Sequence record: OQ708376.1
Source of the DNA: Escherichia phage vB_EcoM_CRJP21
Length of the DNA: 64,000 nt
Reading direction: 5' to 3' (one strand)
In this document: in pieces, positions 13,138 through 42,269 of the stretch
Numbering within the stretch: position 1 is the stretch's first letter
Layout of the letters: the number at the start of each line of letters is the position of its first letter
The notes under the pieces: generated by a model
The model's database searches: none
What the model was told of the DNA's origin: nothing
The model's input: the letters and a program-made list of their open reading frames with translations, nothing else
Made by a program: the position numbers and the translations under genes

Positions 13138-13234
13138 AAAAAGGGATTGACTCCGGTCAGTCCCTTTGCTATTATATACGCATAGAAACAAATCAGCCCA
13201 CAGGGTGCATAAATGTATCTATTGTTTGCTGGTG
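13138..13234 (+). repeat. intergenic cassette copy B (R3 hairpin-promoter + R2) followed by Chi octamer 13227-13234
   Basis: near-identical to copies at 9111, 16409, 18667. Confidence 0.55.
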
Positions 13235-13375: not shown

Positions 13376-13443
13376 AAATAGTTTGACAATAGAAAGTAAA
13401 CGAGTATAATACTTACATCAACCACTGATAAGGAAACATTAAA

Positions 13444-13719: not shown

Positions 13720-13805
13720 GTATTGACAAAGTATCTTAGTACTGTATAATAGTTTACATCGAGAGGGGGAATGGTTCCCCTCCTAACAAAGAGAGAGAAA
13801 TAAAA

Positions 13806-13988: not shown

Positions 13989-14077
13989 GTATTGACAAAG
14001 TATCTTAGTACTGTATAATAGTTTACATCAAGCGAGGGGAATGGTTCCCCTCCTAACTAAAAGAGAGAGAAATAAAA

Positions 14078-14401: not shown

Positions 14402-14496
14402 TAGAATCCATTTAAAGTACTATTTGACATTGCCCAGATAGTACTTTATAATAGACTCTAACTTGTAGTACTAACTCAACTAATAGGATGTATACC

Positions 14497-14892
14497 ATGA
14501 TTACTAAATTCTACGCTACCCGTGAAGCTGCCCGTATTGTTGCACGCGAGGAAGGAGCAGCATTTAAAGACATGGGCAAAGATGCACCGAAAGGTCAACG
14601 CTGGGCCGTACAGTTCAAAGAAATCTCTGATATCGTGAATTCACCGGAGCCAGTACTAACAGCAGCAGAACTAAAACGAGCGGATTTACTGGCGGCAGTA
14701 CTTAACGCACAAGATGAATTTATCGCTGATTCTGATATCAAAGTACAGACAAACCATACCGCTTGGACTCACGCGGATCACCTGGCAAACCTTAAGCGTC
14801 CAAGTGAACTGGTTCGCAACCAGAAAGAGATCCGACACGACCGTAAGGGTAATCGTGTAACAGTATACAGTAAACGCCGCCAGGTTATCTAA
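14497..14892 (+). CDS. hypothetical protein (131 aa), paralog of 2520..2786
   Basis: ATG 8 nt after TAGGA; shared motifs. Confidence 0.6.
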   Translation: MITKFYATREAARIVAREEGAAFKDMGKDAPKGQRWAVQFKEISDIVNSPEPVLTAAELKRADLLAAVLNAQDEFIADSDIKVQTNHTAWTHADHLANLKRPSELVRNQKEIRHDRKGNRVTVYSKRRQVI

Positions 14893-14954: not shown

Positions 14955-15209
14955 ATGATTAAGGTACAACTATCTAAAGATAATATCTTGCGGGTACACT
15001 ATAAAGCACCACAGAGAATCATCACAAAGGCCGTACAGCTTGCTAATGAGTTTATTAATGGTAACCTATTACCAAGGAAGTTAAGCAACGGAAAACTGCG
15101 TGTAATCGATGTAGACACTAACAACAGAATAGTAATTGAGAACACAGGAAAGATAAACCTATATGAACACCAACAATATAATAAGAAAATAAAACTAATA
15201 TCACGTTGA
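14955..15209 (+). CDS. hypothetical protein (84 aa)
   Basis: track ORF. Confidence 0.55.
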   Translation: MIKVQLSKDNILRVHYKAPQRIITKAVQLANEFINGNLLPRKLSNGKLRVIDVDTNNRIVIENTGKINLYEHQQYNKKIKLISR

Positions 15210-15262
15210 CAGTACTCAATTGTTTTAGTACTATGTACATATACCAACACGGGAGAAACAAA

Positions 15263-15481: not shown

Positions 15482-15539
15482 TTGACAGTACTCAAATGTT
15501 TTAGTACTATATGTACATACCAACACGGGGAAAAACAAA

Positions 15540-15782
15540 ATGATTACTTTAGAAAAACGTATCAAAGAAACTACATCGCTGGTGGAACTGTTAACAGTAC
15601 TGAAATGCCGTACTACTCGGTTTAGTACACCGGACTTTATTAATATGGTTGATGTTAATGGTCGCTATCGTATCACGGTCGAACAAGGAGCGGCGAAAGT
15701 ATTCAGTACTAAAAACACTAAGGAAGTGATTCACGCTGTAAGTGTTAAAAAAGTAGTTGCCATTGATAGTAAAGTACTGTAA
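15540..15782 (+). CDS. hypothetical protein (80 aa)
   Basis: track ORF; promoter duplicated from upstream gene. Confidence 0.55.
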   Translation: MITLEKRIKETTSLVELLTVLKCRTTRFSTPDFINMVDVNGRYRITVEQGAAKVFSTKNTKEVIHAVSVKKVVAIDSKVL

Positions 15783-15813
15783 GATAGTTTCATTAACTCA
15801 AGGAGAACATGCA

Positions 15814-16398
15814 ATGCGTAATTATACTAAATTCATCCGTACCCTGTCAGAAATGGAAACCAACAAAGAGATCCTTTCAGCTTGTCGGTTAGCTGGTCTG
15901 GAGATCATCGGTGCGGGTTCTTCCCGTATTGTATTCGCTTTAAATGATCGGTTAGTGATTAAGGTCGCGAATTGTGATGCGGGTGTAGAACAAAATGAAA
16001 CTGAATGTAAGGTATGGAATTTTTTAGATTATGACCGCCCTCAATTGAAACAGTACTTTGCAAAGGTGCATATGCATTTATGCGATCCTGATAATATGTT
16101 TATCGTTATGGATCGGTTGAGTACTGCAAGTAAAGGCAGTGTAAAGCACGTAAACGCGTGCAATGAATTAAAGTACAATATTAAACGTAATGCCATTGAA
16201 CGCCAGCACCGCTTTGCTGATGCACTACAACACGTTGATGATACATTATCAACACTAACGATAAGAGATATCAGAAAACAGAATATCGGCCAGGATCGTA
16301 ATGGCCTTATTAAAGTACTTGATTACGGTTTAACCCGCAATATCTGGAATCAGTACTATAAAAAGCGTGATGTAGAAGCAAGTAAGGTAACACGATAA
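15814..16398 (+). CDS. protein-kinase-like protein (ePK/RIO/Kdo-kinase-like fold)
   Basis: Gly-rich loop IGAGSSRIVF, Lys motif VIKV, catalytic-loop-like IRDIRKQNIG, DFG-like LDYG; RBS AGGAG. Confidence 0.5.
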   Translation: MRNYTKFIRTLSEMETNKEILSACRLAGLEIIGAGSSRIVFALNDRLVIKVANCDAGVEQNETECKVWNFLDYDRPQLKQYFAKVHMHLCDPDNMFIVMDRLSTASKGSVKHVNACNELKYNIKRNAIERQHRFADALQHVDDTLSTLTIRDIRKQNIGQDRNGLIKVLDYGLTRNIWNQYYKKRDVEASKVTR

Positions 16399-16408
16399 AA
16401 AAGATTAA

Positions 16409-16498
16409 AAAAGGGATTGACTCCGGTCAGTCCCTTTGCTATTATATATTCATTGAGAGATAACTCACTGACCCATAGGGTGCGGAAGTGTATCTATT
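16409..16498 (+). repeat. intergenic cassette copy C (R3 + R2)
   Basis: near-identical to other copies. Confidence 0.55.
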
Positions 16499-16619
16499 AT
16501 ATAAGTATTCAGTACTGAAAACTATTTTTAAAAAAGTACTTGCATTGTACTTAGAATCAAGTATAATGTTTTACATAGAGAGGGGGAAATGGTTCTCCCT
16601 GGTAATAAGGAATAAAATC

Positions 16620-16841
16620 ATGACTACAATGACTTGCATTTACGCTTCCAATCTTCTGAATGATGCGGCCTTTAATGTTGATTCAGAATATCAATGTTAT
16701 CGGGATGAAAATAAAAAAGTTTTTGTAGTTGATAATAATGGTTTCCATATTGAATTACAATCCGGTTTCACTGGTGTTGATGGTAAATCAGTGTGGGGCG
16801 TACAGGATGATAAAGGCACATATCATTTTAAACGTAATTAA
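16620..16841 (+). CDS. hypothetical protein (73 aa)
   Basis: internal ATG after promoter and hairpin. Confidence 0.6.
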   Translation: MTTMTCIYASNLLNDAAFNVDSEYQCYRDENKKVFVVDNNGFHIELQSGFTGVDGKSVWGVQDDKGTYHFKRN

Positions 16842-16925
16842 GTATTGACAAAGTATATCAGTACTGTATAATAGTTTACATCAAGGGGAGAATAGTTCTC
16901 CCCGATACTAAAAGGAAACAAAATT

Positions 16926-18362: not shown

Positions 18363-18451
18363 AACTATTTGACAGTACTAACCAGTAATGTATAATGTTT
18401 TACATAGAGCGGGGGAATAGTTCTCCCGTCAATAGTTTGGAGTAAAACATT

Positions 18452-18666: not shown

Positions 18667-18790
18667 AAAAGGGATTGACTCCGGTCAGTCCCTTTGCTAT
18701 TATATACTCATAGACAAAAACTAGCCCACTGGGTGCAGGAGTGTATCTAAAATATATAGTTAATAACGGTGAGTAACTATCTGCTGGTGG
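18667..18790 (+). repeat. intergenic cassette copy D (R3 + R2) followed by Chi octamer 18783-18790
   Basis: direct read. Confidence 0.55.
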
Positions 18791-20192: not shown

Positions 20193-20221
20193 TGACTTTT
20201 TATACAATTCATATATTATAT
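20193..20221 (+). promoter_or_regulatory. candidate promoter of family-1 array (TTGACT + AT-rich -10)
   Basis: TTGACT then TATTAT/TTATAT; exact -10 uncertain. Confidence 0.4.
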
Positions 20222-20249
20222 GATTGATATTATTTTCAAGGGAGTCCCT

Positions 20250-20447
20250 ATGCGTATTTTAACTCAAGCAGAACACCACGAAAGACTTATCAATAACATG
20301 GCTATGATAATGTATAAGTCACATGAACGTGGTATTTCCTATAAGCGTGAATTAATTATGGCACTATTCATTGGAACTAACTTTCAGGAAAGGTATGTCA
20401 AGGATTGGATTTGGTATTTAATTGAAGATGTAACGAGTAAACTATGA
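20250..20447 (+). CDS. family-1 small protein (LGTNYQ-core family)
   Basis: core FIGTNFQERYV; ATG 7 nt after AGGGAG. Confidence 0.6.
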   Translation: MRILTQAEHHERLINNMAMIMYKSHERGISYKRELIMALFIGTNFQERYVKDWIWYLIEDVTSKL

Positions 20448-20644
20448 AAATGCGTAAATTAACCGAAAAAGAATATCAAGCACTGTTACGTAAAAACTTC
20501 ACAAAGATTTATAATACAGACACACACGTAGAACGAATGGAGTTATACCTTTTGATTACATTGGGAACAAACTATCAGGGTAGATGGGTGTGGCAATATA
20601 TGGATACATTGAAAAATAAAATATTGTCCACGAGGAAACAATGA
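20444..20644 (+). CDS. family-1 small protein
   Basis: core LGTNYQGRWV; ATGA coupling. Confidence 0.6.
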   Translation: MKMRKLTEKEYQALLRKNFTKIYNTDTHVERMELYLLITLGTNYQGRWVWQYMDTLKNKILSTRKQ

Positions 20645-20850
20645 AAACTATAACACGAACCCAATCATACGGTCTTATCTTGAAATACATGGACTTAATG
20701 GTGGATATCAGCAAAGACCTTCCTAAAACTGAAATTGAAGTTGCAAGAGCAGAGATCCGCATGTTGGCTGTACTGAACACAAACCATCAGGAAGATTATG
20801 TTGAAGAATGGATTCGATTTTTAATAGAAGATATAAAGAGTAAACTATGA
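20641..20850 (+). CDS. family-1 small protein
   Basis: core LNTNHQEDYV; coupled. Confidence 0.6.
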   Translation: MKTITRTQSYGLILKYMDLMVDISKDLPKTEIEVARAEIRMLAVLNTNHQEDYVEEWIRFLIEDIKSKL

Positions 20851-21062
20851 TTATTATAGAAAACTCATATCAATATACTGAACGCATCGCTGCCAGACAA
20901 CTTGAAATCCTCATAATATACGAAGAGACTTCTGATTTAAACTTAGCCGAGGTATTGGAAAATGAAATACTTTTGGGTGCATTCTTAGGAACAGACTATC
21001 AGAAGTATTATGAGGAAAAGTATTTGTCATCTCTTGAGAAATATATCAGGAGCAAATTATGA
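20847..21062 (+). CDS. family-1 small protein
   Basis: core LGTDYQKYY; coupled. Confidence 0.6.
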   Translation: MIIIENSYQYTERIAARQLEILIIYEETSDLNLAEVLENEILLGAFLGTDYQKYYEEKYLSSLEKYIRSKL

Positions 21063-21271
21063 TTTTTTTAACACCAGAAGAATATAAGAAACGTTTCAAT
21101 TCCGCACAGGGTGAAATCTTACTTATATACCTTTCAAATGCAGACCTTAACTTATCAAGGGTATTAGAAAAAGATTTACTTATGGGTGCATTCCTTGATA
21201 CAGACTTTCAGGTGTATTATGTAGGGGAATACTTAATTGCACTTCAGAATTATATCAGGAGTAAACTATGA
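21059..21271 (+). CDS. family-1 small protein
   Basis: core LDTDFQVYYV; coupled. Confidence 0.6.
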   Translation: MIFLTPEEYKKRFNSAQGEILLIYLSNADLNLSRVLEKDLLMGAFLDTDFQVYYVGEYLIALQNYIRSKL

Positions 21272-21495
21272 AACATTTAAGTAATATTGAGAAGATGAGA
21301 ATTATCATTGATGCATTAAACAAATACGATACCCTTTTACAAATAAAAGGTTTAACTCGATTGGAACACAAGATAAACACCACCGATGTACGCATGATGG
21401 CTGTACTGGGGACGAACTTCCAGGAAGAGTATGTTATTGCACACATAGTTGCACTCAAGAATTACATTATGGACAAATGTAATGAACATCATTAA
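21268..21495 (+). CDS. family-1 small protein
   Basis: core LGTNFQEEYV; coupled. Confidence 0.6.
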   Translation: MKHLSNIEKMRIIIDALNKYDTLLQIKGLTRLEHKINTTDVRMMAVLGTNFQEEYVIAHIVALKNYIMDKCNEHH

Positions 21496-21706
21496 TAACT
21501 TTGAATACGAGGCCCGTGCTAAGAGTGCCAGAAAAAAAGAGAACACCATTTACTTCACTATGATGTACTTACAATGGACTGAAATTGAAGAAAAGGTTGC
21601 TGAAGTATGGATGTTGGAATTCATGGGGACGCAGTATCAGAATAGGTTTGCGGGTGAGTATATCAATGTTCTTATGAAACAAATAGAAAGAAAGGAAAAG
21701 AACTAA
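21482..21706 (+). CDS. family-1 small protein
   Basis: core MGTQYQNRF; internal ATG chosen. Confidence 0.5.
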   Translation: MNIINNFEYEARAKSARKKENTIYFTMMYLQWTEIEEKVAEVWMLEFMGTQYQNRFAGEYINVLMKQIERKEKN

Positions 21707-21864
21707 TGGTTTTCATTAACATATCTGACCAACTCGATACTAAACTAGAAGTCGAGCAGAGTGAGGGATGGATGCTGTACTTTCTTGGAACTTCTCATCA
21801 AAATTTTTATATCCATGAACACATAGTTGCACTCACAAATCTAATAAGGGATAAATGTAAATGA
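21706..21864 (+). CDS. family-1 small protein (52 aa, not in track)
   Basis: core LGTSHQNFY; TAATG coupling. Confidence 0.5.
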   Translation: MVFINISDQLDTKLEVEQSEGWMLYFLGTSHQNFYIHEHIVALTNLIRDKCK

Positions 21865-22118
21865 AACACTTGACGAACGATGAATATTCACTTAGAATTC
21901 GAAAGCTCACCCCAGAAGCAAGAGTAATCTACGATGACGGTGAACTTTCATGGAACGAGATGAAAGTTAAAGTTCATGAGCTATGGTTGCTGTACTTTGT
22001 GGGAACCCAATATCAAGAGAAATATTGTACCGATTATCTTGAACAACTAATGGATCTTATACAGATAAAACTAAATGAACGAATTGTGGAAAAATATGAA
22101 GACTTTATCAAGCACTGA
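21861..22118 (+). CDS. family-1 small protein
   Basis: core VGTQYQEKY. Confidence 0.55.
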   Translation: MKHLTNDEYSLRIRKLTPEARVIYDDGELSWNEMKVKVHELWLLYFVGTQYQEKYCTDYLEQLMDLIQIKLNERIVEKYEDFIKH

Positions 22119-22347
22119 GTATCAGACTGCCCTCTTCTCCCTTCTAAACACTCTCCGCACGAACAATAAACTTTATAATTCCCGTGAAGCTGATATCGTC
22201 AACGGTGATGTTTATCTTATGAAATTCATTGGAACAAACTATCAAGAACTGTTCACTCAACGATATATCTCTGCACTGAGAAACGAAATATCAGATAAAA
22301 CCCGCCAAGCCAGAAGAGAATGGAAGAGACAATGCAACAAAGACTAA
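22096..22347 (+). CDS. family-1 small protein
   Basis: core IGTNYQELF; N-term MKTLSSTEYQ. Confidence 0.55.
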   Translation: MKTLSSTEYQTALFSLLNTLRTNNKLYNSREADIVNGDVYLMKFIGTNYQELFTQRYISALRNEISDKTRQARREWKRQCNKD

Positions 22348-22583
22348 ATCACAAAATGTATTTTAAACTATTACAGAATCTGGGACAAAAACACTATGAT
22401 ACAGTATCTGAAATATTACCCTATGATATCATGCGTTTAATTCATAGTGAGGCAGAGATGCTTGTACTGATGACAGGCACTGATAAAACAGCAATTACCA
22501 AATCTATAGATATGTTCATCGATGCACACTGCCAACACATTAGAACCGAGATATGGAGACGTGAGAATGAAAATCCTGACTGA
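22320..22583 (+). CDS. family-1-like small protein (divergent core)
   Basis: core LVLMTGTDKTAIT; start uncertain. Confidence 0.45.
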   Translation: MEETMQQRLNHKMYFKLLQNLGQKHYDTVSEILPYDIMRLIHSEAEMLVLMTGTDKTAITKSIDMFIDAHCQHIRTEIWRRENENPD

Positions 22584-22782
22584 GCATGAGTATTACAATA
22601 GGTTAAGAACTATACAAGGAAAAGTCTCGTGGACTTTTTTAGATAATTCTATTGCAGAAGCGGACCGATGTGTTATAATAGCTGAAATGAAGCTATTACT
22701 CTTCATTGGGACAAACTATCAAAGTATCTACATAGACGCATGGTTAAGCAGCTTACGTCTGAAGTCGGTGAGTTTAAAATGA
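22567..22782 (+). CDS. family-1 small protein
   Basis: core IGTNYQSIYI; N-term MKILTEHEY. Confidence 0.55.
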   Translation: MKILTEHEYYNRLRTIQGKVSWTFLDNSIAEADRCVIIAEMKLLLFIGTNYQSIYIDAWLSSLRLKSVSLK

Positions 22783-22997
22783 GAAAATTAATAGGTTTCG
22801 AATATGTTAAGCTTCTACAAACCTGTGGAATCAGAAGGAGAATGATTCAAAAGGATAAAAGAATTGCCGAAGAACGAAAGTATATAATGATAACTGAACT
22901 TTATGTCTTAACACTCTTAGGCACAAACTATCAACACACTTATGTAGACCTATGGATCGATGCACTACAGAAAGAGGTTAAAAGTAAATGCAAATGA
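22779..22997 (+). CDS. family-1 small protein
   Basis: core LGTNYQHTYV; ATGA coupling. Confidence 0.55.
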   Translation: MRKLIGFEYVKLLQTCGIRRRMIQKDKRIAEERKYIMITELYVLTLLGTNYQHTYVDLWIDALQKEVKSKCK

Positions 22998-23206
22998 TTA
23001 ATTTAAGTAAAGACGAATTTTATGTTATACTGGCGAAAACTTATCCAGCACGTAAGGCCGTTTATGATAGTAACATTATTGAACCCTCAAAGAAGTTGAT
23101 TTTAGTAAATGAGATAAAGATGCTTTCAGTCTTAGGGACAAACTATCAAGAGAATGCTGTACTGATGTTAATTGATGCCCTCCAGCGAGAGGTTAAACGT
23201 AAATGA
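22988..23206 (+). CDS. family-1 small protein
   Basis: core LGTNYQENAV. Confidence 0.6.
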   Translation: MQMINLSKDEFYVILAKTYPARKAVYDSNIIEPSKKLILVNEIKMLSVLGTNYQENAVLMLIDALQREVKRK

Positions 23207-23433
23207 AAATGATTCATTTAACTTACCATGAATATCAAAAACGTTTAAATGCATCCAGAGATATAAGGATTCAAATATTCAATAACAAAAGATTGAAGCC
23301 TGATATCAGAAAAATCAAAATTATAGAAGCAGAGTTATGCAACTTTCTAGGGACCAACTATCAGGCAGGTAAGGTAAAAAACTATCTTAGAGAACTAATG
23401 AATAGTATTGAAAATAAATGTAAGGGTAATTAA
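23203..23433 (+). CDS. family-1 small protein
   Basis: core LGTNYQAGKV. Confidence 0.6.
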   Translation: MKMIHLTYHEYQKRLNASRDIRIQIFNNKRLKPDIRKIKIIEAELCNFLGTNYQAGKVKNYLRELMNSIENKCKGN

Positions 23434-23434
23434 C

Positions 23435-23674
23435 ATGAAAATGATTAAATTATCTCAAGCAAAATATAAAGAACGCCTGGTGAAAATTGCACCTGGACTT
23501 AATGAAATCCATCACGGAGAAGTCATTAAACACGGAAATAAGATGATTATGAAACTTGAGTTAAAGGTGGGTGCATTCATAGGAACAAACTATCAGGAGT
23601 ATTATGTAGATGAATACATAATCGCACTTAAGAGATACATTGGAAGAAAACTATATCTACAAACTAAAGAATAG
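23435..23674 (+). CDS. family-1 small protein
   Basis: core IGTNYQEYYV; N-term MKMIKLSQAKY. Confidence 0.55.
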   Translation: MKMIKLSQAKYKERLVKIAPGLNEIHHGEVIKHGNKMIMKLELKVGAFIGTNYQEYYVDEYIIALKRYIGRKLYLQTKE

Positions 23675-23703
23675 TATTGAAAATAAATGTGAGGTTGATG
23701 AAC

Positions 23704-23967
23704 ATGCAAATGATCAATTTAAGTAAAGATGAATATACCGAGCGTATGACAAAAATTACGCACAAACGTAATACAATCTATCACAACCCAGAAATTCAAC
23801 ACAGTAAGAAAATGATTATGATGCGTGAGTTAAAGATGGGTGTATTCTTAGGAACAAACTATCAAGATACAGAAGTAAATCGCTTAATCGCGGAGTTACT
23901 ACTGGAAATCAGAGGTAAGCTGTACTTTCATCAAATGACCCAACCACTGAGGTGTACTGATCGATGA
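23704..23967 (+). CDS. family-1 small protein (tandem duplicate of 23435 gene)
   Basis: core LGTNYQDTEV; duplicated junction upstream. Confidence 0.55.
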   Translation: MQMINLSKDEYTERMTKITHKRNTIYHNPEIQHSKKMIMMRELKMGVFLGTNYQDTEVNRLIAELLLEIRGKLYFHQMTQPLRCTDR

Positions 23968-24215
23968 ATACTATGAATAAAATTAATAAAATCGACTTAG
24001 CAGAAAGTTTTGCCAGAATGGGGGAAGCTCTGAAAAGATACGAAAAGGAATATGGTCATTTAAGCTTTTCTATAGAAAAGAGATATGAACTGGAAACAGA
24101 GTTTAAAATGCAGAGTCTCTTAGGAACACAATATCAAACAAGATATGTTCAAACTTGGATTGATTGTTTAATCCAGACAATTCATGTAAGGAACATTAAA
24201 TGCAAAATGAAATGA
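23964..24215 (+). CDS. family-1 small protein
   Basis: core LGTQYQTRYV. Confidence 0.6.
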   Translation: MNTMNKINKIDLAESFARMGEALKRYEKEYGHLSFSIEKRYELETEFKMQSLLGTQYQTRYVQTWIDCLIQTIHVRNIKCKMK

Positions 24216-24454
24216 TATACTTAACCTATAATGAATACGTCGAGAGATTAGTTCGTGCCAAGAGATATACCAATAAACGTCCAATTGACCTAAACCAAAC
24301 CCCAGCAGAAAGGAGTGCAGAAGTATTATTCCAATCACTACCATATCTTCTGGGAACTGATAGACAAGAGGAATATGTTGCACGTATGATTAGATATCTT
24401 AAAATCACTATTAAGGAAAAAGTAAATGCAAATGAAATACTTAACAGACGATGA
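24200..24454 (+). CDS. family-1 small protein
   Basis: core LGTDRQEEYV. Confidence 0.55.
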   Translation: MQNEMIYLTYNEYVERLVRAKRYTNKRPIDLNQTPAERSAEVLFQSLPYLLGTDRQEEYVARMIRYLKITIKEKVNANEILNRR

Positions 24455-24677
24455 GTTAAAAGAACGACTAATTAAATCAAGAAAACATACAAATCAACTT
24501 CCAAACGACACAAACAAGTCTCCAGCGGAAAGGAGTGCAGAAGTTTTATACATTCAACTCATGTACTTTCTTGGCACTGACAGACAAGAGTATTACATTG
24601 AAAGTATGCTTCGATATCTTAAATTCTCTATAAAGGAAAAGATACATGATCAAGTATTTAAAAATCCTAACAGTTAA
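24426..24677 (+). CDS. family-1 small protein
   Basis: core LGTDRQEYYI. Confidence 0.55.
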   Translation: MQMKYLTDDELKERLIKSRKHTNQLPNDTNKSPAERSAEVLYIQLMYFLGTDRQEYYIESMLRYLKFSIKEKIHDQVFKNPNS

Positions 24678-24888
24678 TGAATATCATAAGATTGTAATGA
24701 AAACTAATAGTGATTACGCTAAAAAATCAAACCCAAAGTACATACTGGAACACACATTTGAAGAACGTCAATTAGCTTTAGTTGAAGCAAAACTTCTTGC
24801 ACTATTAGGAACAAACTATCAGGAAGAATACAATAGAAAACTAATATACCTTTTAACTAAACATATAAGAAAAAGAAAAAATGCATGA
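24646..24888 (+). CDS. family-1 small protein
   Basis: core LGTNYQEEY. Confidence 0.55.
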   Translation: MIKYLKILTVNEYHKIVMKTNSDYAKKSNPKYILEHTFEERQLALVEAKLLALLGTNYQEEYNRKLIYLLTKHIRKRKNA

Positions 24889-25115
24889 AACACTTGACAG
24901 ATGATGAACATGGGCTTATAGTAATGGATGTAATCAACATCGAATACAAAAAGTTGATACGCTATCGTTGTTATGAAGATAAGCAACTCGTTCTAGCAGA
25001 ACAGAAGTTGTTTCGACTCTTAAACACAAACTACCAAGCACAATACGAAGAATCGTATATGTACCTTTTGGCGAGGAAAGCAAAAAGAGATTATGAAAAT
25101 TTTAAGCAAAGGTGA
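24885..25115 (+). CDS. family-1 small protein
   Basis: core LNTNYQAQY. Confidence 0.6.
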   Translation: MKHLTDDEHGLIVMDVINIEYKKLIRYRCYEDKQLVLAEQKLFRLLNTNYQAQYEESYMYLLARKAKRDYENFKQR

Positions 25116-25314
25116 TTCAGTAATATTACTTATAGAGAGTTCAAGTAAATTCTTAAACATAACACTGTCTGATATAGATGAAGATGACAAAGAAGTACTG
25201 AGAGCAGATTTAAGAGTACTGTTACATATCGGAACAAACCTACAAGAAGAATATGTAGAGTGCTACATCAATGAACTTAAAGAATCAGTACTGAGAAAAT
25301 GCAAATGCAAATGA
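25093..25314 (+). CDS. family-1 small protein
   Basis: core IGTNLQEEYV. Confidence 0.55.
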   Translation: MKILSKGDSVILLIESSSKFLNITLSDIDEDDKEVLRADLRVLLHIGTNLQEEYVECYINELKESVLRKCKCK

Positions 25315-25532
25315 AAATCATTACCGATGTAGAATACCTAACAATCATAAATGGACTGTTTTTGAAGCTCTTCGTCATTAACACATCAGATATACCAGAT
25401 ATGGATAAAATTATTAAGAGAAATGAAGTCTATGTTCTAGCTACCCTTGGAACGAACTATCAAGAACACGACATTAAAGATTATATTAATACACTTAAAC
25501 GAGCGATTGAACTAAAATGCCAAAACCACTAG
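25299..25532 (+). CDS. family-1 small protein
   Basis: core LGTNYQEHDI. Confidence 0.55.
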   Translation: MQMQMKIITDVEYLTIINGLFLKLFVINTSDIPDMDKIIKRNEVYVLATLGTNYQEHDIKDYINTLKRAIELKCQNH

Positions 25533-25732
25533 GAACAGCAGAATACATTGAACTCATGGGATTACACTTCTCATCCTTTCAGAAACTTATGCGAGAATCA
25601 AAGAATGATTTAGAATATACCATCAGAGGTTCCGATTTAAGAATGCTTCTCACCCTAGACACAGATTCCCAAGAGCGATTTGTCAATGAGCATATTAGAG
25701 CACTTTTAATGGAAATTAAAAGTAAACTATGA
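25517..25732 (+). CDS. family-1 small protein
   Basis: core LDTDSQERFV. Confidence 0.55.
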   Translation: MPKPLGTAEYIELMGLHFSSFQKLMRESKNDLEYTIRGSDLRMLLTLDTDSQERFVNEHIRALLMEIKSKL

Positions 25733-25944
25733 AGATAATATCAAACCAAGAGTACTTGGCACTATTCAGGAAGAATAATCACAAATATATGGCACTTGAT
25801 TCAAGAACTGATATAAGTGAACTTGAAAAAAATCTTTTGCGTTCAGATATGATAGTACTGACACTCTTAGGAACACAGCATCAAGAGAGAACTGTTAATT
25901 CACACATAGGTATTCTTATACAGATTGTACAGGAAAAGATATGA
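25729..25944 (+). CDS. family-1 small protein
   Basis: core LGTQHQERTV. Confidence 0.6.
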   Translation: MKIISNQEYLALFRKNNHKYMALDSRTDISELEKNLLRSDMIVLTLLGTQHQERTVNSHIGILIQIVQEKI

Positions 25945-26162
25945 GAATCATATCACAACAAGATATTCTTAAGTTCACAAGGGTTCATGCATCTGAATTT
26001 GATGCTATATTATCAAAAAGTTACAACAACCCTTATACACAAGATGTACATTACAGTGAATTATGGATGTATATACTTTTAGGTACAAATAAGCAAGAGC
26101 AAGCCGTACAGAAGTATTTGACAGCTTTACGTGATGCTACAGCTAATGGAGTATGTGTTTAA
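25941..26162 (+). CDS. family-1 small protein
   Basis: core LGTNKQEQAV. Confidence 0.6.
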   Translation: MRIISQQDILKFTRVHASEFDAILSKSYNNPYTQDVHYSELWMYILLGTNKQEQAVQKYLTALRDATANGVCV

Positions 26163-26163
26163 T

Positions 26164-26406
26164 ATGAAAGTACTATCTGAATTAGAAATGTATCATAGAT
26201 TTAATAAGTACTATCATTTACTTAAGCCTATACAGAGGATTAAATGTCCATTTGAAGAGAAACAGGTATTAATTTATGAGCATAAGTTATTTGTATCATT
26301 AGGTACGAATGAACAAGAGTATTATTTGAAGTTGTACTTGATTACATTAATAGATTTAATTCACTATAAAACCAAACAAGCTAATAAAGAGAAATATGAA
26401 AACTAA
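26164..26406 (+). CDS. family-1 small protein
   Basis: core LGTNEQEYYL; N-term MKVLSELEMY. Confidence 0.55.
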   Translation: MKVLSELEMYHRFNKYYHLLKPIQRIKCPFEEKQVLIYEHKLFVSLGTNEQEYYLKLYLITLIDLIHYKTKQANKEKYEN

Positions 26407-26740
26407 TATACAACTCAAGGTATATAAATCATTTGAACATACATATATCAAAAGTAGTCTATGTAGAGATGTAATGGATTACAAGGGTAAGCCATTCACA
26501 ATTACCTATGATTCTTATGTTAGTGATTTATATATATCATTTGTTAATTACGAAAATAAAATATACAAGCACGTTGATATTAAAGATTTAAGTACTTTAT
26601 CACCAGAGGAATACTTTCAGGAATCATTAGTATGGGATTTAGAGTTCCCTATGCCATTAGTACATAAGATGATAGTACTAATGAAAGAATCTAAACAGGA
26701 GCCTAATAGTGGTTATGAAGAACACACAGTTGAGTATTAA
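26396..26740 (+). CDS. family-2 protein (EEYFQxSLV-core family)
   Basis: core EEYFQESLVWD. Confidence 0.6.
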   Translation: MKTNIQLKVYKSFEHTYIKSSLCRDVMDYKGKPFTITYDSYVSDLYISFVNYENKIYKHVDIKDLSTLSPEEYFQESLVWDLEFPMPLVHKMIVLMKESKQEPNSGYEEHTVEY

Positions 26741-27110
26741 AAGTACTGATAATACTAAGAGTTATACAAGCTCAAGTACTGTGACAATCGAAGTGAATTC
26801 TATTAATGCTGGTAATGCAGTAGATAAGTTCTTTATTGCTCAAGGGTACAGGAAAGATATTCATCAATACTGTTCAGTATATGGGGAGTACAATTCTACT
26901 GAAGATATAATTTATTGGTCAACACATCAAGATTATATAACTAAAATTGGCGTTCCAGATGTTAGTACTTTATCTGAAGAAGAATACTTTCAGTACAGCT
27001 TAGTACATGATGTACCTATACCTTTAGGGTTAATCAAGGGTATGCAGGAAGAGGTTCATAAGCTTAAATCCATGAGTTCAGGTACTTTCATTAGAACAGT
27101 GCAATACTAG
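26709..27110 (+). CDS. family-2 protein
   Basis: core EEYFQYSLVHD. Confidence 0.6.
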   Translation: MVMKNTQLSIKSTDNTKSYTSSSTVTIEVNSINAGNAVDKFFIAQGYRKDIHQYCSVYGEYNSTEDIIYWSTHQDYITKIGVPDVSTLSEEEYFQYSLVHDVPIPLGLIKGMQEEVHKLKSMSSGTFIRTVQY

Positions 27111-27111
27111 C

Positions 27112-27140
27112 TTGACAGTACTTTTTATTACTGATATAGT
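27112..27140 (+). promoter_or_regulatory. internal sigma70-like promoter (TTGACA, 17 bp, TATAGT)
   Basis: consensus boxes. Confidence 0.55.
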
Positions 27141-27169
27141 GCACCAACGTTAATCATAGGGTACAGATT

Positions 27170-27415
27170 ATGTTAAAATTTTTAAATTTCCTTATCGTCT
27201 TGTGTATTGTTCTTGGAATTGCACCGTTTGTATTAGCGTATCTGGATTCAGATGAAATGCAGAAGATGAATTGCACAAAGACAGGACAGAGTAGAGAAGA
27301 GACGGTTATGATGCCTGTAACGGTTATTGTGAATAACATACCAATTACGAACATGATTCCTACCCTAACGACAACGTACCAGTACTCTTGTGCAGACGGA
27401 GAGAGGTGGAGATGA
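27170..27415 (+). CDS. small membrane protein (N-terminal TM helix)
   Basis: MLKFLNFLIVLCIVLGIAPFVLAYL hydrophobic N-terminus. Confidence 0.5.
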   Translation: MLKFLNFLIVLCIVLGIAPFVLAYLDSDEMQKMNCTKTGQSREETVMMPVTVIVNNIPITNMIPTLTTTYQYSCADGERWR

Positions 27416-27732
27416 AATTTAATATAGCAAAAACATCGAATGTATGTATATTTGGTTATGCAGATGAGTTAGGTGATATTGACATTCTTTTGTACAAAAA
27501 GGATGGTGTTATGCATTTCAAGTACCAGGATGAAGAGGCAGACAATTATCCTTTACCTAATTTAGTACAAATGCAGGAAGAGGAATTATTCCAGTACAGC
27601 TTAGTATATGACATTGATATTTGCACGATGCCAGTACTAATTAATATTCAAAAAGTGATGCTCGATGTGTTTGATAGGCTAATACAAGGCACACAAGGAA
27701 GAACCATATATGTCAATGTACAAGACAATTAA
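27412..27732 (+). CDS. family-2 protein
   Basis: core EELFQYSLVYD; ATGA coupling, RBS GGAGG. Confidence 0.6.
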   Translation: MKFNIAKTSNVCIFGYADELGDIDILLYKKDGVMHFKYQDEEADNYPLPNLVQMQEEELFQYSLVYDIDICTMPVLINIQKVMLDVFDRLIQGTQGRTIYVNVQDN

Positions 27733-27925
27733 TCAAGAATGGAAGACCCAAAAGTACAGGGAATTCAGTACTAGTTTAACAAAAGATGCATTGAATTTAA
27801 AAAGAACAGAGTTTGATATGTTTATTTTTCTTGGAACACGTTCACAGGAACAATACATTCATTATTATATAAGTTCATTGCGAACGGAGATCGTATACAA
27901 AACACAGGGTATTATAAAAAAGTAA
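27710..27925 (+). CDS. family-1 small protein (outlying copy)
   Basis: core LGTRSQEQYI. Confidence 0.5.
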   Translation: MSMYKTINQEWKTQKYREFSTSLTKDALNLKRTEFDMFIFLGTRSQEQYIHYYISSLRTEIVYKTQGIIKK

Positions 27926-35205: not shown

Positions 35206-35583
35206 ATGGAAATAAAATATAATCAATATTGTGTAAGGACATGGATGTACACGGGTGAGTTAGTTACGCACTGTAACTTATACAAAGGTGATTTAAACTA
35301 CGCCAGGGACAAGATTTTAAAGTACTGGAATGCTGACTTTTATTTGATGGATTTTAGTACTGGGTTTAGGGGTAAAGCAACCGAGATGTTGGACTATACA
35401 GTACTTGATGATGCTGCACTGTTTCAGGAGGCATTAGTATTTGACAAGAAGTACATCTGTACATTAGAAGAGATGATTGAATTACAGCGTAGAATTAAAT
35501 GTATTCACAGGGAATGTATAGATATCTGGTGCAGTACTGGTGAAGATGATTTTTGTAATCATTTCAATCTAGGGGAAGTGTGA
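35206..35583 (+). CDS. family-2 protein (subfamily B)
   Basis: core AALFQEALVFDKKY; RBS GAGGA. Confidence 0.6.
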   Translation: MEIKYNQYCVRTWMYTGELVTHCNLYKGDLNYARDKILKYWNADFYLMDFSTGFRGKATEMLDYTVLDDAALFQEALVFDKKYICTLEEMIELQRRIKCIHRECIDIWCSTGEDDFCNHFNLGEV

Positions 35584-35744
35584 TGGAATTTGATTTTTTA
35601 ATATCAGTACATACGGTCAAGGGTGCACCTCAGTACCTTTGTAATTTAAACAAAGGTGATTTGATTATGGATACAGATACAGAGGCTGTATACAGTTCTA
35701 ATATTCTGTACAAATTCAGTACTAATCTGAAGGAGATTTTATGA
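35583..35744 (+). pseudogene. truncated family-2 paralog (53 aa N-terminal fragment)
   Basis: MEFDFLISVHT..CNLNKGDL matches N-terminus of 36112 gene but lacks core. Confidence 0.5.
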
Positions 35745-36112
35745 AAAAAGAAATTAGAATTCAATTCGGTATGAGGAAAAAAGAGGTCATCTGTACACTG
35801 AATCATGCGGTCGTGGAAAGCCTTGGTGGTGCATTACAAAAATTCTCCCATTTTGTTCTTGTACTATATGAAAATGGGTCTTTTAAAATCTTCACATATG
35901 ATGATTCAAAAAATTACCGTAATGATTTTGTAAATCTGACAGTACTGTCAGAAGAGGAATTCTTTCAGGAAAGTACTGTCTGGAATTTACCAGGAGCACC
36001 AATTGAATACGTCCGTGCTACACAGGCAGAAATGATCAAAGTAATGCAGAACTATCCAGAAGATTATATGACTAAGTTTCCTGAATCTATTTATGTAGAG
36101 GTTGAGTACTGA
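35741..36112 (+). CDS. family-2 protein
   Basis: core EEFFQESTVWN. Confidence 0.6.
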   Translation: MKKEIRIQFGMRKKEVICTLNHAVVESLGGALQKFSHFVLVLYENGSFKIFTYDDSKNYRNDFVNLTVLSEEEFFQESTVWNLPGAPIEYVRATQAEMIKVMQNYPEDYMTKFPESIYVEVEY

Positions 36113-36468
36113 TGGAATTTGATTTTTTAATATCAGTACATACTTTCAAGCACAGTTATCAGTACTTTTGTAATTTAAACAAAGGTGATTTAATGCACAG
36201 TGCAAATGAGTATATTCATTACACTCAGGGTAAATTTACATTCATTGATTACAGTTCATTACAGTATCCACACCAAGATATGCCGGACTATACATTAATG
36301 GATACCGCAGAACTATTCCAAGAATCATTAGTATTTGATAAGAAGTACTTGTGTACATTTGAAGAAGTTATTGCAATACAAAATGAAATGAAAGAGTATG
36401 CTGCTTTGCATAAACCCAATGCAAGTATTAATCAAGAATACAAATTCAATTTAGGAATTCAAGAATGA
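36112..36468 (+). CDS. family-2 protein (subfamily B)
   Basis: core AELFQESLVFDKKY. Confidence 0.6.
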   Translation: MEFDFLISVHTFKHSYQYFCNLNKGDLMHSANEYIHYTQGKFTFIDYSSLQYPHQDMPDYTLMDTAELFQESLVFDKKYLCTFEEVIAIQNEMKEYAALHKPNASINQEYKFNLGIQE

Positions 36469-36824
36469 CATATGATTATTCTATGTACTATTATAAGTTA
36501 CCTAAAGGATGGGACTTGTGCTGTAATCTTATTAAGGGCGACTCGGAACATGAGTTGAGTTTATATATGCATTACAAAGATTCTTGTTTTAAATTTATTC
36601 ATGTATCACATGACGACTATGACTATGAATCTGAGAGTCTTATAGATTATACAGTACTGGACGATGGTGAACTATTTCAGGCTGCATTAGTGTTTGATAA
36701 GAATAAGTACTCCTGTACATTTGAAGAAATGGTTTCTTTGCAAAATGAAATGAAGAGATTTGAAAAAGAAAACGTATTTAATCCATCCCCATCAAGAACG
36801 AATAATTATTATTTCAATATATGA
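36465..36824 (+). CDS. family-2 protein (subfamily B)
   Basis: core GELFQAALVFDKNKY. Confidence 0.6.
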   Translation: MTYDYSMYYYKLPKGWDLCCNLIKGDSEHELSLYMHYKDSCFKFIHVSHDDYDYESESLIDYTVLDDGELFQAALVFDKNKYSCTFEEMVSLQNEMKRFEKENVFNPSPSRTNNYYFNI

Positions 36825-36833
36825 GATTATAAA

Positions 36834-37328
36834 ATGACATTACAGAGTTCATTGGAAAAAGCAAAGAAGATTCATGAGTACATGAATATGGCAAAAGAAG
36901 GTTCAGTTTACGGTGTTTTCAAAGACACAAGTACTCAATATTATGTGCCGGATAACCTCCTTTATAATGACTGCTCAGATACAGAAACGTGCGTACTGGA
37001 TACAGAAACATGCATACTAGATACCGACCCTAATGATTATGAATGCTTCATTAATATGCATAATGAGTACATGGTCTATATTAATGATGCAGATATTACC
37101 ATATACAGTACTGACAGCGATTCCGATGACATTATAATTCCGAGTGAAGTACTAGAAGGTCCGTGGGATAGTGAAGAGTATTACTTCCAACAAAGTACTG
37201 TATACGATGATGAAGTACTTGAAGTATTAGTTATTATGTGGTACTTTAAAAGTATTGGTTCTGGGAACTTCTATTTCGATTACAGATACGTAACGAAAAC
37301 TGTAGATAACGGTATTAACAGGGGTTGA
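36834..37328 (+). CDS. family-2 protein (subfamily A)
   Basis: MTLQSSLEKAKKIHEY..., core EEYYFQQSTVYD...VIMWYFKS. Confidence 0.65.
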   Translation: MTLQSSLEKAKKIHEYMNMAKEGSVYGVFKDTSTQYYVPDNLLYNDCSDTETCVLDTETCILDTDPNDYECFINMHNEYMVYINDADITIYSTDSDSDDIIIPSEVLEGPWDSEEYYFQQSTVYDDEVLEVLVIMWYFKSIGSGNFYFDYRYVTKTVDNGINRG

Positions 37329-37329
37329 A

Positions 37330-37800
37330 ATGAGTTTAGAAAGAGCATTAGAGATTGCGAAGTTAATTGATTTATGCAGCAAAGAAATTGTAGCAAATTG
37401 TCTCAATGGATATCTATTCAAGGAAGGTAAATCTTATTGTCGAATGAGATACGATGACAGTAGTGAGTACATTCACATGTACGATGAAAACTTAGATTCT
37501 TCTGAAACAACACTCAATGGGTGTGATGTTAATTTGGAAGATAATTACATGTACTTCTGTCGTGATGCTGATATTTTAATACAAGATTCTGACATTCTAA
37601 CTGGTGGTGAAGAGAAACATCTTCCGTATTCAGTACTGGATAATGACTGGGGAAGTGAAGAGTACTACTTCCAGCAGAATACTATCTACGAGGAAGATGT
37701 ACTTGACAAGCTTGTCATTCTGTGGTACTTTAATAATACAGATTGTCCTAGCTTCTATTTGGACTTGGATCTACTACGAGTTATTAAAGAGGATATATGA
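37330..37800 (+). CDS. family-2 protein (subfamily A)
   Basis: core EEYYFQQNTIYE...VILWYF. Confidence 0.65.
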   Translation: MSLERALEIAKLIDLCSKEIVANCLNGYLFKEGKSYCRMRYDDSSEYIHMYDENLDSSETTLNGCDVNLEDNYMYFCRDADILIQDSDILTGGEEKHLPYSVLDNDWGSEEYYFQQNTIYEEDVLDKLVILWYFNNTDCPSFYLDLDLLRVIKEDI

Positions 37801-38240
37801 GTTTAGCAAGTGCACTTGAACTAGCACACAGAATACATCACTTCCACGATAACATAAAAAGTGGGTTCTATGGTGATAAAGTAAGTGCATTTGGTGATGA
37901 GTATTATCTATCAGGTATAAAGACATACTCTGATGATATTTTACTTATGGGACAGGATAAAGACAATACTATACAGTACTCTTCATGTAGTCAATATACT
38001 AATTTTTTTGTATATATTCCAGGTACTAAGATTACTTTTGACACAACAAATACACCTGTTGACTTCGGGGTACTTGATGGCCCGTGGGGTACTGAAGAGT
38101 ATTACTTCCAACAGAGTCTCATTTTTAACCAAGAAATTCTTGATTCCTTGGTTGTGTTGTGGTACTTTAAGGAATTGAATTTTGAACCATTCTTTCTTGA
38201 CTGGGGAGCATGTGAATATTTAAGTACAGGGGATTTGTAA
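37797..38240 (+). CDS. family-2 protein (subfamily A)
   Basis: core EEYYFQQSLIFN...VVLWYFK. Confidence 0.65.
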   Translation: MSLASALELAHRIHHFHDNIKSGFYGDKVSAFGDEYYLSGIKTYSDDILLMGQDKDNTIQYSSCSQYTNFFVYIPGTKITFDTTNTPVDFGVLDGPWGTEEYYFQQSLIFNQEILDSLVVLWYFKELNFEPFFLDWGACEYLSTGDL

Positions 38241-38728
38241 TGTCATTACAAAGTGCATTGAAAGAAGCAAAGAAGATTCATGAGTACATGATTATGGTAC
38301 AGGAAGGTTCAGTACCAGGTGTATATAAAACATCTGATACTGAATTTTTTGTAAAAGACCGTGACGATTATGACGAGTCCGAGATATGTGCAGAAACATT
38401 AGTACTGCACACTGATACTGGTGACAGTGATAACTGTGAATATCATATGTACAATCAGTACATTAGTTATTGCCGTAATGAAGATATTACCATCTACAAC
38501 ACAGATAGTGATGCTGATGACACTATCATTCCTTATTCAGTACTGGAAGGACCGTGGGATAGTGAAGAATATTACTTCCAGAATAGTACGTTGTACAATG
38601 AAGAAGAATTAGATGTTATTGTAATTATGTGGTATTTCAAAAGTATTGACTCCAGTAGTTTCTATTTTGATTATGAATATGTAGAGAATACTGTAGGAGA
38701 AGGTAATGTCATTACAAAGTGCTCTTGA
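38240..38728 (+). CDS. family-2 protein (subfamily A)
   Basis: core EEYYFQNSTLYN...VIMWYFKS. Confidence 0.65.
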   Translation: MSLQSALKEAKKIHEYMIMVQEGSVPGVYKTSDTEFFVKDRDDYDESEICAETLVLHTDTGDSDNCEYHMYNQYISYCRNEDITIYNTDSDADDTIIPYSVLEGPWDSEEYYFQNSTLYNEEELDVIVIMWYFKSIDSSSFYFDYEYVENTVGEGNVITKCS

Positions 38729-39158
38729 AAAAGCAAAAGAACTACATGGATACTTTGACGATATAAAGGCAGGAAAGTTCAAAGAAGTGTACAAAGCCGA
38801 GAACGGCAACTACTACAAGGATGAAATGTATAATAACTCCGTTGGTGTAAGGGTTATTCTTGGGTTGAATTCCAATAGTCCTATATCGTTTTCTGAATAC
38901 AATAGAGATGCAGAATTTATTAGTTATGTTGAAAATGGTAGCATTCGTTTTATTAATCGCAAAAAACCATTAATTTTGAATTATGAAGTACTGGAAGGTC
39001 CGTGGGATAGTGAAGAGTATTACTTCCAAAACAGTACTGTTTACGATGATGAAGTACTTGAAGCATTAGTTATTATGTGGTACTTAAAGAGTGTTAACTG
39101 TCCTCGATTTTATTTGGATTTCGAAGAACTTCGTAAAGATCCAGAAGGTATAGAATGA
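38706..39158 (+). CDS. family-2 protein (subfamily A)
   Basis: core EEYYFQNSTVYD...VIMWYLKS. Confidence 0.65.
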   Translation: MSLQSALEKAKELHGYFDDIKAGKFKEVYKAENGNYYKDEMYNNSVGVRVILGLNSNSPISFSEYNRDAEFISYVENGSIRFINRKKPLILNYEVLEGPWDSEEYYFQNSTVYDDEVLEALVIMWYLKSVNCPRFYLDFEELRKDPEGIE

Positions 39159-39469
39159 AAAACTTATTCAGTGTTCAGTACGTTCCTGGTGAAATTAGTT
39201 TATTGTATCTGTTTGATCATGATAATTCATTATTACTAGTAGTAAAGAAATGCCAAGCTAGTTCGTTTGTTGAATACATTCACGATAGTGAATATATACC
39301 TGATTTTTTAGAGTGTGATTATTACGATGAACATGAATCATTTATTTTCCAGGAATCGCTCGTATGGGATAAATCGATCAACTTCTTTACGTTAATTGAA
39401 TTACAAAAGCAGGTGAAGTATCATTGGAATTACTTAATCACACAGGATTACATTGAGATAGAAATATAA
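39155..39469 (+). CDS. family-2 protein
   Basis: core SFIFQESLVWD. Confidence 0.55.
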   Translation: MKNLFSVQYVPGEISLLYLFDHDNSLLLVVKKCQASSFVEYIHDSEYIPDFLECDYYDEHESFIFQESLVWDKSINFFTLIELQKQVKYHWNYLITQDYIEIEI

Positions 39470-39777
39470 TGACTAAAAATGAATTTGATTCACTTTGTAC
39501 GGTTTATAATTCATTGACAGAAATACCTGACTTTATTAATTACATTTCAGCTTTAAATCAAATTATGCATAGTTTTGAACAATCGTTTGAAGAGAAATAT
39601 GCTGGTAGAAAAGTTCTATGTCATATGTCAATGTACTTAGGAGATGGTGAGCCTTACACTACAAGTACTACATGTGAAATAAAAAAATATAATATATTAT
39701 TGGGGACAATAGAATTCACAGTATCCAATGGTGGTAGTTATATGTACTTTAGAGATGGAGTGGTTGAATTATTATGA
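39469..39777 (+). CDS. hypothetical protein (102 aa)
   Basis: track ORF; no family motif. Confidence 0.45.
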   Translation: MTKNEFDSLCTVYNSLTEIPDFINYISALNQIMHSFEQSFEEKYAGRKVLCHMSMYLGDGEPYTTSTTCEIKKYNILLGTIEFTVSNGGSYMYFRDGVVELL

Positions 39778-40756: not shown

Positions 40757-40952
40757 TCGAATTGAATACATGAGAACTGTGAGTGCAGTGTGGGACATAT
40801 GGTTCACTACTAAACCAAAAATGGATTACCATGACTTTAAGCTCTTGTTCTTCGTTGGCTCTAACAAACAGGATGTTGCAATGAAGGGTTATATTCAGCA
40901 CTTACAGGAACTAATCCAGAAGAGAATATATGAAAATAATAGACCAAAATGA
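40734..40952 (+). CDS. family-1-like small protein (outlying copy)
   Basis: core VGSNKQDVAM. Confidence 0.45.
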   Translation: MKYSKTFNRIEYMRTVSAVWDIWFTTKPKMDYHDFKLLFFVGSNKQDVAMKGYIQHLQELIQKRIYENNRPK

Positions 40953-42264: not shown

Positions 42265-42269
42265 AACAA

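Follow-up and report, generated by a model that had tools for sequence, protein, structure and literature searches.

We analysed a stretch of 64,000 nucleotides (nt) from Escherichia phage vB_EcoM_CRJP21 (record OQ708376.1), hereafter the window, and focused on a small gene at 15814-16398 (+) whose product is predicted to adopt a kinase fold and which we read as a candidate minimal protein kinase. The coding sequence, stop codon included, begins with the ATG at 15814 and specifies 194 amino acids (aa); an AAGGAG ribosome-binding site can be read at 15800-15805 (+), 8 nt 5' of this ATG, and all the homologues aligned share one start position (MRN..). The Nei-Gojobori dN/dS ratio was 0.04 against the ph0011 and fEgEco12 orthologues and 0.19 against that of 121Q, which implies purifying selection; this is a genuine gene of the expressed type. 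No paralogue was found in the window when all six-frame open reading frames (ORFs) were searched by blastp and with hidden Markov models. A first-pass annotation, made from the letters alone, had described a 194-aa ORF at this position with four kinase-like motifs in canonical order. The ORF and its translation are as it described, and each motif occurs in the order it gave: IGAGSSRIVF at residues 32-41, VIKV at 48-51 (containing K50), IRDIRKQNIG at 150-159 (containing D152 and N157) and LDYG at 169-172 (containing D170).

The positions of these motifs agree with the minimal kinase-like reading proposed in that annotation, as the Gly-rich loop, the beta3 lysine, the catalytic Asp and Asn and the DFG-like Asp are all canonically placed. 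The nucleotide-binding loop G33-A-G35-S36-S37-R38 (15910-15927, +) aligns with the Gly-rich loops of kinases and is flanked by strands 30-34 and 38-42 of the structural model described below. Where the classical GxGxxG has its third glycine, the family has an invariant arginine (R38); G33, G35, S36 and R38 are invariant in a closer alignment of 13 sequences. K50, the VAIK-type lysine of beta3 (15961-15963, +; model strand 47-52), is invariant in a 56-sequence family alignment whose mean column identity is 22%. Helix C (model helix 55-73) carries Q60-N61-E-T-E64 (15991-16005, +), of which Q60 and E64 never vary and N61 hardly does; a salt bridge is presumed to link E64 to K50, and Q60 and N61 are conserved residues peculiar to this family. 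The HRDxxxxN-type catalytic loop D152-I-R-K-Q-N157 (16267-16284, +) contains the nearly invariant D152 and aligns with HRDIKPSN of MKK4. The Arg of the catalytic-loop "RD" is not conserved in the family, and N157 is conserved within the RaK2-like clade and often S or T in distant members. The DFG-equivalent metal-binding motif D170-Y-G172 (16321-16329, +), with D170 and G172 invariant, aligns with the DFG of MKK4, MKK7 and STK4; the protein ends 22 residues past DYG, and some homologues about 10 residues past it.

Across the 56 sequences the invariant residues are R38, K50, G57, Q60, E64, D170 and G172, and those conserved in at least 90% are S36, V48, A52, N61, D152 and G159. The conserved columns coincide exactly with kinase catalytic positions: beta3 Lys, helix C Glu, catalytic Asp and DFG Asp are all among them, next to positions peculiar to the family. 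The invariant or near-invariant residues specific to the clade are R38 in the Gly-rich loop and G57, Q60 and N61 in helix C.

Sequence searches pointed in the same direction. The top Pfam matches, both below threshold, were Pkinase and PK_Tyr_Ser-Thr. A phmmer search of the PDB returned 82 sequences at E<10, of which the 60 listed were all protein kinases; its MKK4 alignment paired irdirkqnigqdrnglikvldygl with the catalytic loop and DFG region (RDIRKQN against HRDIKPSN). Profiles built from 13 and from 56 family members matched 255 and 610 PDB sequences, respectively, at E<1. The best profile match was MKK4 (E 8.5e-5), and the MKK4, MKK7 and STK4 alignments span the protein from the Gly-loop region to just beyond DFG. 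The E-values against kinases are all modest, 1e-4 at best, which leaves some room for a fold of another topology; however, the best 60 of the 610 profile matches were all protein kinases, the catalytic columns match kinase positions and the order of secondary structure is kinase-like, so that we regard a non-kinase topology as scarcely credible.

An AlphaFold model computed from the 56-sequence alignment had a pLDDT of 94.2 and a pTM of 0.90, while the shallow 13-sequence alignment yielded an unusable model (pLDDT 49.9). The model shows two amino-terminal helices (residues 4-12 and 17-26), strands beta1-beta3 (30-34, 38-42 and 47-52), helix C (55-73), then beta4 and beta5 (the latter at 96-100), helices D and E (109-120 and 130-145), the catalytic loop, beta7 and beta8 (158-160 and 166-168), the DYG motif and, as the sole element after it, a short helix (175-182). 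This is the fold order of the PKL (protein kinase-like) superfamily (two lobes, with a five-stranded amino-terminal lobe sheet, helix C, hinge, helices D/E, catalytic loop and beta7-8 running into the metal-binding loop), and it is accompanied by the residues that define this superfamily, with K50, E64 and D170 invariant and D152 conserved in at least 90% of the 56 diverse sequences. Foldseek found 23 PDB matches at E<=1e-3, all of them PKL or SAICAR-synthase-like. The fold scores were 9.5 for SAICAR synthetase, 8.9 for APH(2''), 8.7 for STK17A, 8.1 for both PknB and MEK1, 7.6 for Rio2, 7.2 for the Ark1 RNA kinase and 6.6-6.8 for Bud32, and Foldseek agreed. SAICAR synthetase has a kinase/ATP-grasp-like nucleotide-binding architecture without the D-x4-N ... 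D-x-G motif pair. In BFVD the best matches were the RaK2 and CBB homologues together with many other phage proteins of 150-250 residues, followed by autographivirus proteins annotated as T7-type protein kinases (E 3e-6 to 5e-5, TM ~0.55). Structure prediction and profile searches, which the first-pass annotation had proposed as checks, both came out in favour of a kinase, the listed PDB profile matches being protein kinases throughout. Together, the predicted structure and the conserved positions make the assignment of a kinase fold with its catalytic residues solid.

The protein is nevertheless not a regular eukaryotic-type kinase domain, as it contains no activation segment, APE motif or helices F-I. 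Eukaryotic-type Ser/Thr kinases (PF00069; MKK4, MKK7, STK4/MST1, PknB) are its closest detectable sequence relatives, and it has in common with them the amino-terminal lobe, the beta3 Lys, the helix C Glu, the catalytic loop and the DFG-type motif. Unlike them, it lacks everything from the activation segment and APE motif through helices F-I, has no conserved HRD Arg and carries Arg at the third Gly, with a core of ~160 residues versus ~260. This catalytic core is among the smallest kinase-fold units confidently predicted, which makes it useful for asking what a minimal kinase needs. Among other small kinase folds, OspG/NleH are minimal folds of ~200 residues that serve as parasite effectors against the host. 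HopBF1, another such bacterial effector, has been described as a "minimal and atypical" kinase fold of ~200 residues (PMC9950578). All of these act on eukaryotic targets, and they are likened to the 194-aa protein by description.

The small size and the missing activation loop also recall RIO1/RIO2, Bud32 and ArkI/Ark1, which share the fold, and the first-pass annotation had suggested a RIO/Kdo-kinase-like enzyme. This part of its proposal did not hold. RIO kinases have an STGKEA-type loop and an IDxxQ metal loop, as opposed to the GxGSSR (here GAGSSR) and LDYG of the phage protein, and no RIO1 or Kdo Pfam model matched it at E<=10, nor any of the 56 family members. The RIO, Bud32 and Ark enzymes differ from it in their Gly-loop and metal-loop motifs and keep more of the C-lobe, and nothing indicates that their substrates (ribosome or KEOPS partners, tRNA) bear on the 194-aa protein. 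Membership of the RIO/Bud32/Kdo-kinase group is in our view very improbable.

In pseudokinases, one or more of four residues (beta3 Lys, helix C Glu, catalytic Asp, DFG Asp) has usually been lost. In the present family K50, E64 and D170 are invariant, D152 is conserved in at least 90% of members and the spacing is canonical, as is typical of active phosphotransferases. We therefore consider it unlikely that the kinase fold serves other chemistry or none, that is, that the protein is a pseudokinase or ATP-binding scaffold blocking a host factor, or an enzyme of AMPylation (as in SelO) or glutamylation (as in SidJ). The extreme truncation with no helix F, the Arg at the third Gly of the loop and the variability of the metal-binding Asn across the wider family would fit such a role, and precedents for kinase folds doing non-kinase chemistry have been named (PMC9950578).

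The protein belongs to PHROG 4301 (E 1e-41, 143.9 bits, residues 3-187 against profile positions 13-184 of 225), a family annotated as "unknown function", so that membership adds no mechanism. No Pfam, NCBIfam or PADLOC model covers this family; the PADLOC matches were weak generic-kinase ones to PD-T4-6. A profile search of 1.84 billion cluster representatives recovered 2,074 proteins at E<=1e-3, each standing for a cluster at 50% identity, and 245 at E<=1e-10, mostly of 180-300 residues. Orthologues 36-100% identical occur in RaK2-like jumbo phages, and close relatives were found only in such phages of Escherichia, Salmonella, Klebsiella, Erwinia, Xanthomonas, Yersinia and Pectobacterium. 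The close-relative alignment had no match in 185,579 representative bacterial and archaeal genomes and in IMG/VR matched phage 121Q alone, so the RaK2-like clade looks phage-restricted. The gene appears to represent a very large, unnamed and apparently phage-borne clade of ultra-minimal kinases, whose proteins are without the entire helix F-I half of the C-lobe.

This family is prone to duplication, either as adjacent genes or as fused domains. In Pectobacterium phage CBB two mini-kinase genes, CBB_444 and CBB_445 (194 and 168 aa; locus L013, 1874-2983), are adjacent and lie inside a tRNA cluster with Phe, Leu, Glu, Tyr, Ser and Ser genes. Many metagenomic family proteins consist of 2-4 complete tandem mini-kinase domains in a single ORF; the ORF at 204-2975 of a JGI metagenome contig (L009) translates intact into 923 aa with four domains, each matching at E 1e-26 to 1e-42. 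Multi-domain members also include P0021, P0027, P0030 and P0032; in other members, large unrelated regions are added (up to 3,248 aa). Pfam searches of ten longer family members gave no informative fused domain. In P0078, a distant member of the family, an N-terminal (residues 1-260) nucleotidyltransferase-like GS...DLD motif is fused to the mini-kinase, in a region to which Pfam gave no match.

The surroundings of the homologues bear on the nature of the substrate. Besides the two CBB genes inside a tRNA cluster, a metagenomic homologue (L006) has an AAA_33/KTI12-type P-loop kinase and RtcB in its vicinity, and a link to RNA is possible, though unproven. These loci speak for an active PKL phosphotransferase with a non-protein substrate, such as the 2'-OH of RNA or tRNA (as for ArkI/Ark1), a nucleotide or signal, a sugar or the LPS core (the target of WaaP and Kdo kinase) or a small antibiotic-like molecule (the target of APH). 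The model has none of the peptide-binding elements of eukaryotic-type kinases, R38, Q60 and N61 on the Gly-loop and the first turns of helix C would suit a fixed small or phosphate-bearing ligand, and the fold scores do not separate APH or Ark1 from protein kinases. On the other hand, the best similarity is to Ser/Thr protein kinases, and Pfam models for APH, choline kinase, Kdo kinase and RIO were unmatched by the 56 members. The tRNA and RNA-repair neighbourhoods are not recurrent either: distant members on phage-like contigs lie among small early genes, replication genes or structural genes, no partner gene recurred across the homologue loci compared, and there is no tRNA gene in the whole window. 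We find a non-protein substrate possible but somewhat doubtful.

The genomic setting of the gene suggests expression early in infection. The surrounding 2.5 kb are 95-97% identical to Asteriusvirus jumbo coliphages (vB_EcoM_G17, Sharanji, PBECO4 and 121Q), and the protein is 100% identical in G17, E9.1 and two others. Since the coordinate of the gene (15.8 kb) nearly matches that in the records of its relatives, the window probably covers the left ~64 kb of an Asteriusvirus (RaK2-like jumbo coliphage) genome. Related phages have direct terminal repeats of ~21 kb (20,668 bp in Sharanji and 20,993 bp in fEgEco12); the fEgEco12 orthologue, at 16,161-16,745, lies within the repeat, and several records hold two copies of the orthologue per genome. 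Judging from the relatives with mapped ends, the kinase-fold gene would sit inside the ~21-kb direct terminal repeat.

A consensus scan located six perfect (12/12) sigma-70 sites, TTGACA-N16/17-TATAAT, between 13 and 19 kb, all on the + strand, at 13383-13410, 13723-13750, 13992-14019, 14424-14452, 16845-16872 and 18369-18396. Within these 6 kb one such site precedes almost every small gene. The 13-19 kb interval is predicted to be an unusually strong early region for the host RNA polymerase. The first-pass annotation had placed the gene in the early region, a fair description because of these six sites nearby, and one with which the terminal-repeat location in relatives agrees. The kinase gene itself is preceded by a co-oriented 80-aa ORF (15540-15782, +), which is annotated as a coding sequence in relatives and had no above-threshold Pfam match, and both lie downstream of a promoter-like site TTGACA-N17-TACTAT at 15482-15510 (+), which scored 10/12; no stronger + strand site was found in the scan from there to the kinase gene. 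This site is likely the promoter of a two-gene unit in which the 80-aa ORF would probably be co-transcribed with the kinase gene. A weaker site directly 5' of the kinase gene, TTGCCA-N17-TAAGAT at 15757-15785 (+; 9/12), may be a chance match. Downstream, scans for terminator-like and promoter-like elements revealed the hairpin AAAGGGATTGACTCCGGTCAGTCCCTTT (16410-16437) with an overlapping promoter TTGACT-N17-TATTAT, together spanning 16410-16445 (+), a cassette at which the transcription unit of the kinase likely stops and the following one begins. The likely order of the unit is the promoter-like site at 15482-15510, the 80-aa ORF, the kinase gene and the hairpin at 16410-16437.

Another point of comparison is the kinase of phage T7, gp0.7 (T7K), an early protein of demonstrated promiscuity (PMC13645617). 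It phosphorylates a large part of the host proteome and disables several immune systems (PMC13645617), and phage kinases have recently been shown to act as broad counter-defence weapons (PMC13645617). The first-pass annotation had set T7K apart as not homologous to the pattern seen here. In terms of profiles this contrast stands, there being no significant profile-profile relation: when the family was compared with a T7K alignment by hhalign, the amino-terminal lobe alone aligned (LGxGSSR..VIKIA against LGNGHFS..VIKVG), with E 0.009 and a probability of 4%. In other respects the contrast was overdrawn. Both proteins are phage-encoded and early and have little kinase-domain sequence after the metal-binding Asp, and K93, D195, N200 and D213 of T7K correspond to K50, D152, N157 and D170 with the same spacing (102 residues from Lys to Asp, 5 from Asp to Asn and 13 from Asn to the metal-binding Asp). 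T7-type kinases are, moreover, among the better viral structural matches to the 194-aa protein, and a gp0.7 homologue is present in the same phage lineage. The motifs differ, as T7K has DPV and D-M-H-S-G-N where the 194-aa protein has DYG and D-I-R-K-Q-N, and T7K possesses a C-terminal DNA-binding/host shut-off domain (PMC13645617) that the 194-aa protein is without. From the profile comparison, T7K and the PHROG 4301-type kinase appear as separate families.

The gp0.7 homologue of the lineage is a separate gene that lies outside the window. In phAPEC6 it is gp031c (213 aa; locus L014, 1381-2022), a true T7K homologue by hhalign, with E 1.3e-10 to T7K and 0.059 to the family of the 194-aa protein; the motif DPL replaces DFG in gp031c. 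It corresponds to the T7K homologue noted for the "G17 jumbophage" (PMC13645617), and the Sharanji homologue is WNN14432.1 (Sharanji paper). On these comparisons each Asteriusvirus genome is predicted to encode two unrelated mini-kinases.

What the data show is the fold, the conservation of catalytic residues, a genomic setting of early type and how the family is distributed; the enzymatic activity, a protein substrate and the biological role we infer. We give somewhat better than even odds, roughly 0.55, to the reading in which the gene encodes a minimal protein kinase that is constitutively active, expressed early and directed at host and/or phage proteins; we favour it because of the conserved catalytic residues, the nearest similarity to Ser/Thr kinases and the analogy with T7K. 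Host sigma-70 promoters in the Asteriusvirus terminal repeat would drive its production as soon as infection begins. Judging from the conserved residues, ATP would be held beneath the G33-x-G35-S-S-R38 loop, K50, braced by E64 of helix C, would position its alpha and beta phosphates, N157 and D170 of the DYG motif would bind Mg2+, and D152 would act as the catalytic base in the transfer of the gamma-phosphate to a hydroxyl group. As there is no activation segment, no RD Arg and no element beyond one helix after DYG, we expect the enzyme to be active constitutively and to have no lobe dedicated to peptide binding. The most likely outcome, given the T7K analogy, would be the phosphorylation of Ser/Thr (possibly Tyr) in host, perhaps phage, proteins during takeover or counter-defence.

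Several points weigh against this proposal. The Pkinase match (PF00069) had an E-value of 0.0024 and scored 17.8 bits, below the gathering threshold of 31.7, and PF00069 matched just 6 of the 56 family members at E<=0.01. Helix F, the usual core of the C-lobe, is absent from the model, and stability or activity might require a partner. The Mg-binding Asn is changed to Ser or Thr in many distant family members. Depletion of Ser/Thr/Tyr is a signature of promiscuous kinases in T7-like phages; their content was 17.0% in the proteins of the first 21 kb versus 19.0-19.7% later, a slight dip that gives no clear signature of this kind. A different role is also plausible because the phage already has a T7-type kinase, and literature searches turned up no experimental work on the family.

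We also consider, tentatively, that the 194-aa protein may be a second, independent phage phosphorylation system, either acting on a substrate class other than that of T7K (RNA, nucleotide signals or specific immune proteins) or forming part of a counter-defence toolkit diversified in arrays during an arms race. The identity of its substrates would show whether jumbo phages run two separate phosphorylation programmes during takeover, and would tell what thousands of phage proteins that now lack annotation do.

That the product is a kinase has been said before, in databases and in one paper. The product is labelled "protein kinase domain-containing protein" in ph0011 and PBECO4 (UniProt L7TKF0), "serine/threonine-protein kinase PRP4" in fEgEco12, "PknA" in Turkey3 and "putative protein kinase" in SE_PL and fENko-Kae01. 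WNN14351.1, listed in the Sharanji paper as "another protein kinase, which function is unknown", is the orthologue of the 194-aa gene. The remaining interest is moderate and lies in a very large, unnamed family of ultra-minimal kinases that coexists with a T7-type kinase.

Upstream of the kinase unit, an 84-aa ORF (14955-15209, +) contains a ParE-like toxin domain (PF24732, E 6e-11, above threshold). The kinase is preceded by a 134-aa ORF (14488-14892) and this ParE-like gene not just in the window but also in RaK2 and in a metagenomic relative of 52% identity. We considered whether the pair forms a functional module with the kinase and rejected the idea, as the pair does not precede the kinase in XbC2, CBB or the distant homologues; we read the arrangement as lineage synteny. 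The interval between the ParE-like gene and the kinase varies, with no intervening gene in the metagenomic relative L004 and one different ORF in RaK2. In the window it holds near-identical promoter and leader segments (TTGACA-N17-TACTAT) at 15206-15234 and 15482-15510, each preceding a small gene (72 aa and 80 aa, respectively); spurious ORFs through these segments read MTVLNCFSTMYIYQHG and MTVLKCFSTICTYQHG.

The hairpin/promoter cassette downstream of the kinase gene occurs in identical form three times between early genes, at 13140-13175, 16410-16445 and 18668-18703. The hairpin has a 12-bp stem whose 5' arm holds the -35 box of the TTGACT-N17-TATTAT promoter, and the repeated cassette looks like a combined terminator and promoter module.

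Further into the window, all-against-all blastp (E<=1e-5) identified a tandem array of 24 paralogous small genes (~50-90 aa) at 20220-27925 plus 40930-41121, whose start lies close to the inner boundary predicted for the terminal repeat. All-against-all blastp also grouped eight genes of ~150-165 aa (36834-45750) and six of ~50-125 aa, mostly ~120 (35206-42632), into two paralogue families. The region from 28 to 62 kb consists largely of similar-sized + strand ORFs of 150-200 aa. As a whole, the window has a GC content of 34.2%, and ~150 mostly short + strand genes cover 84% of it.

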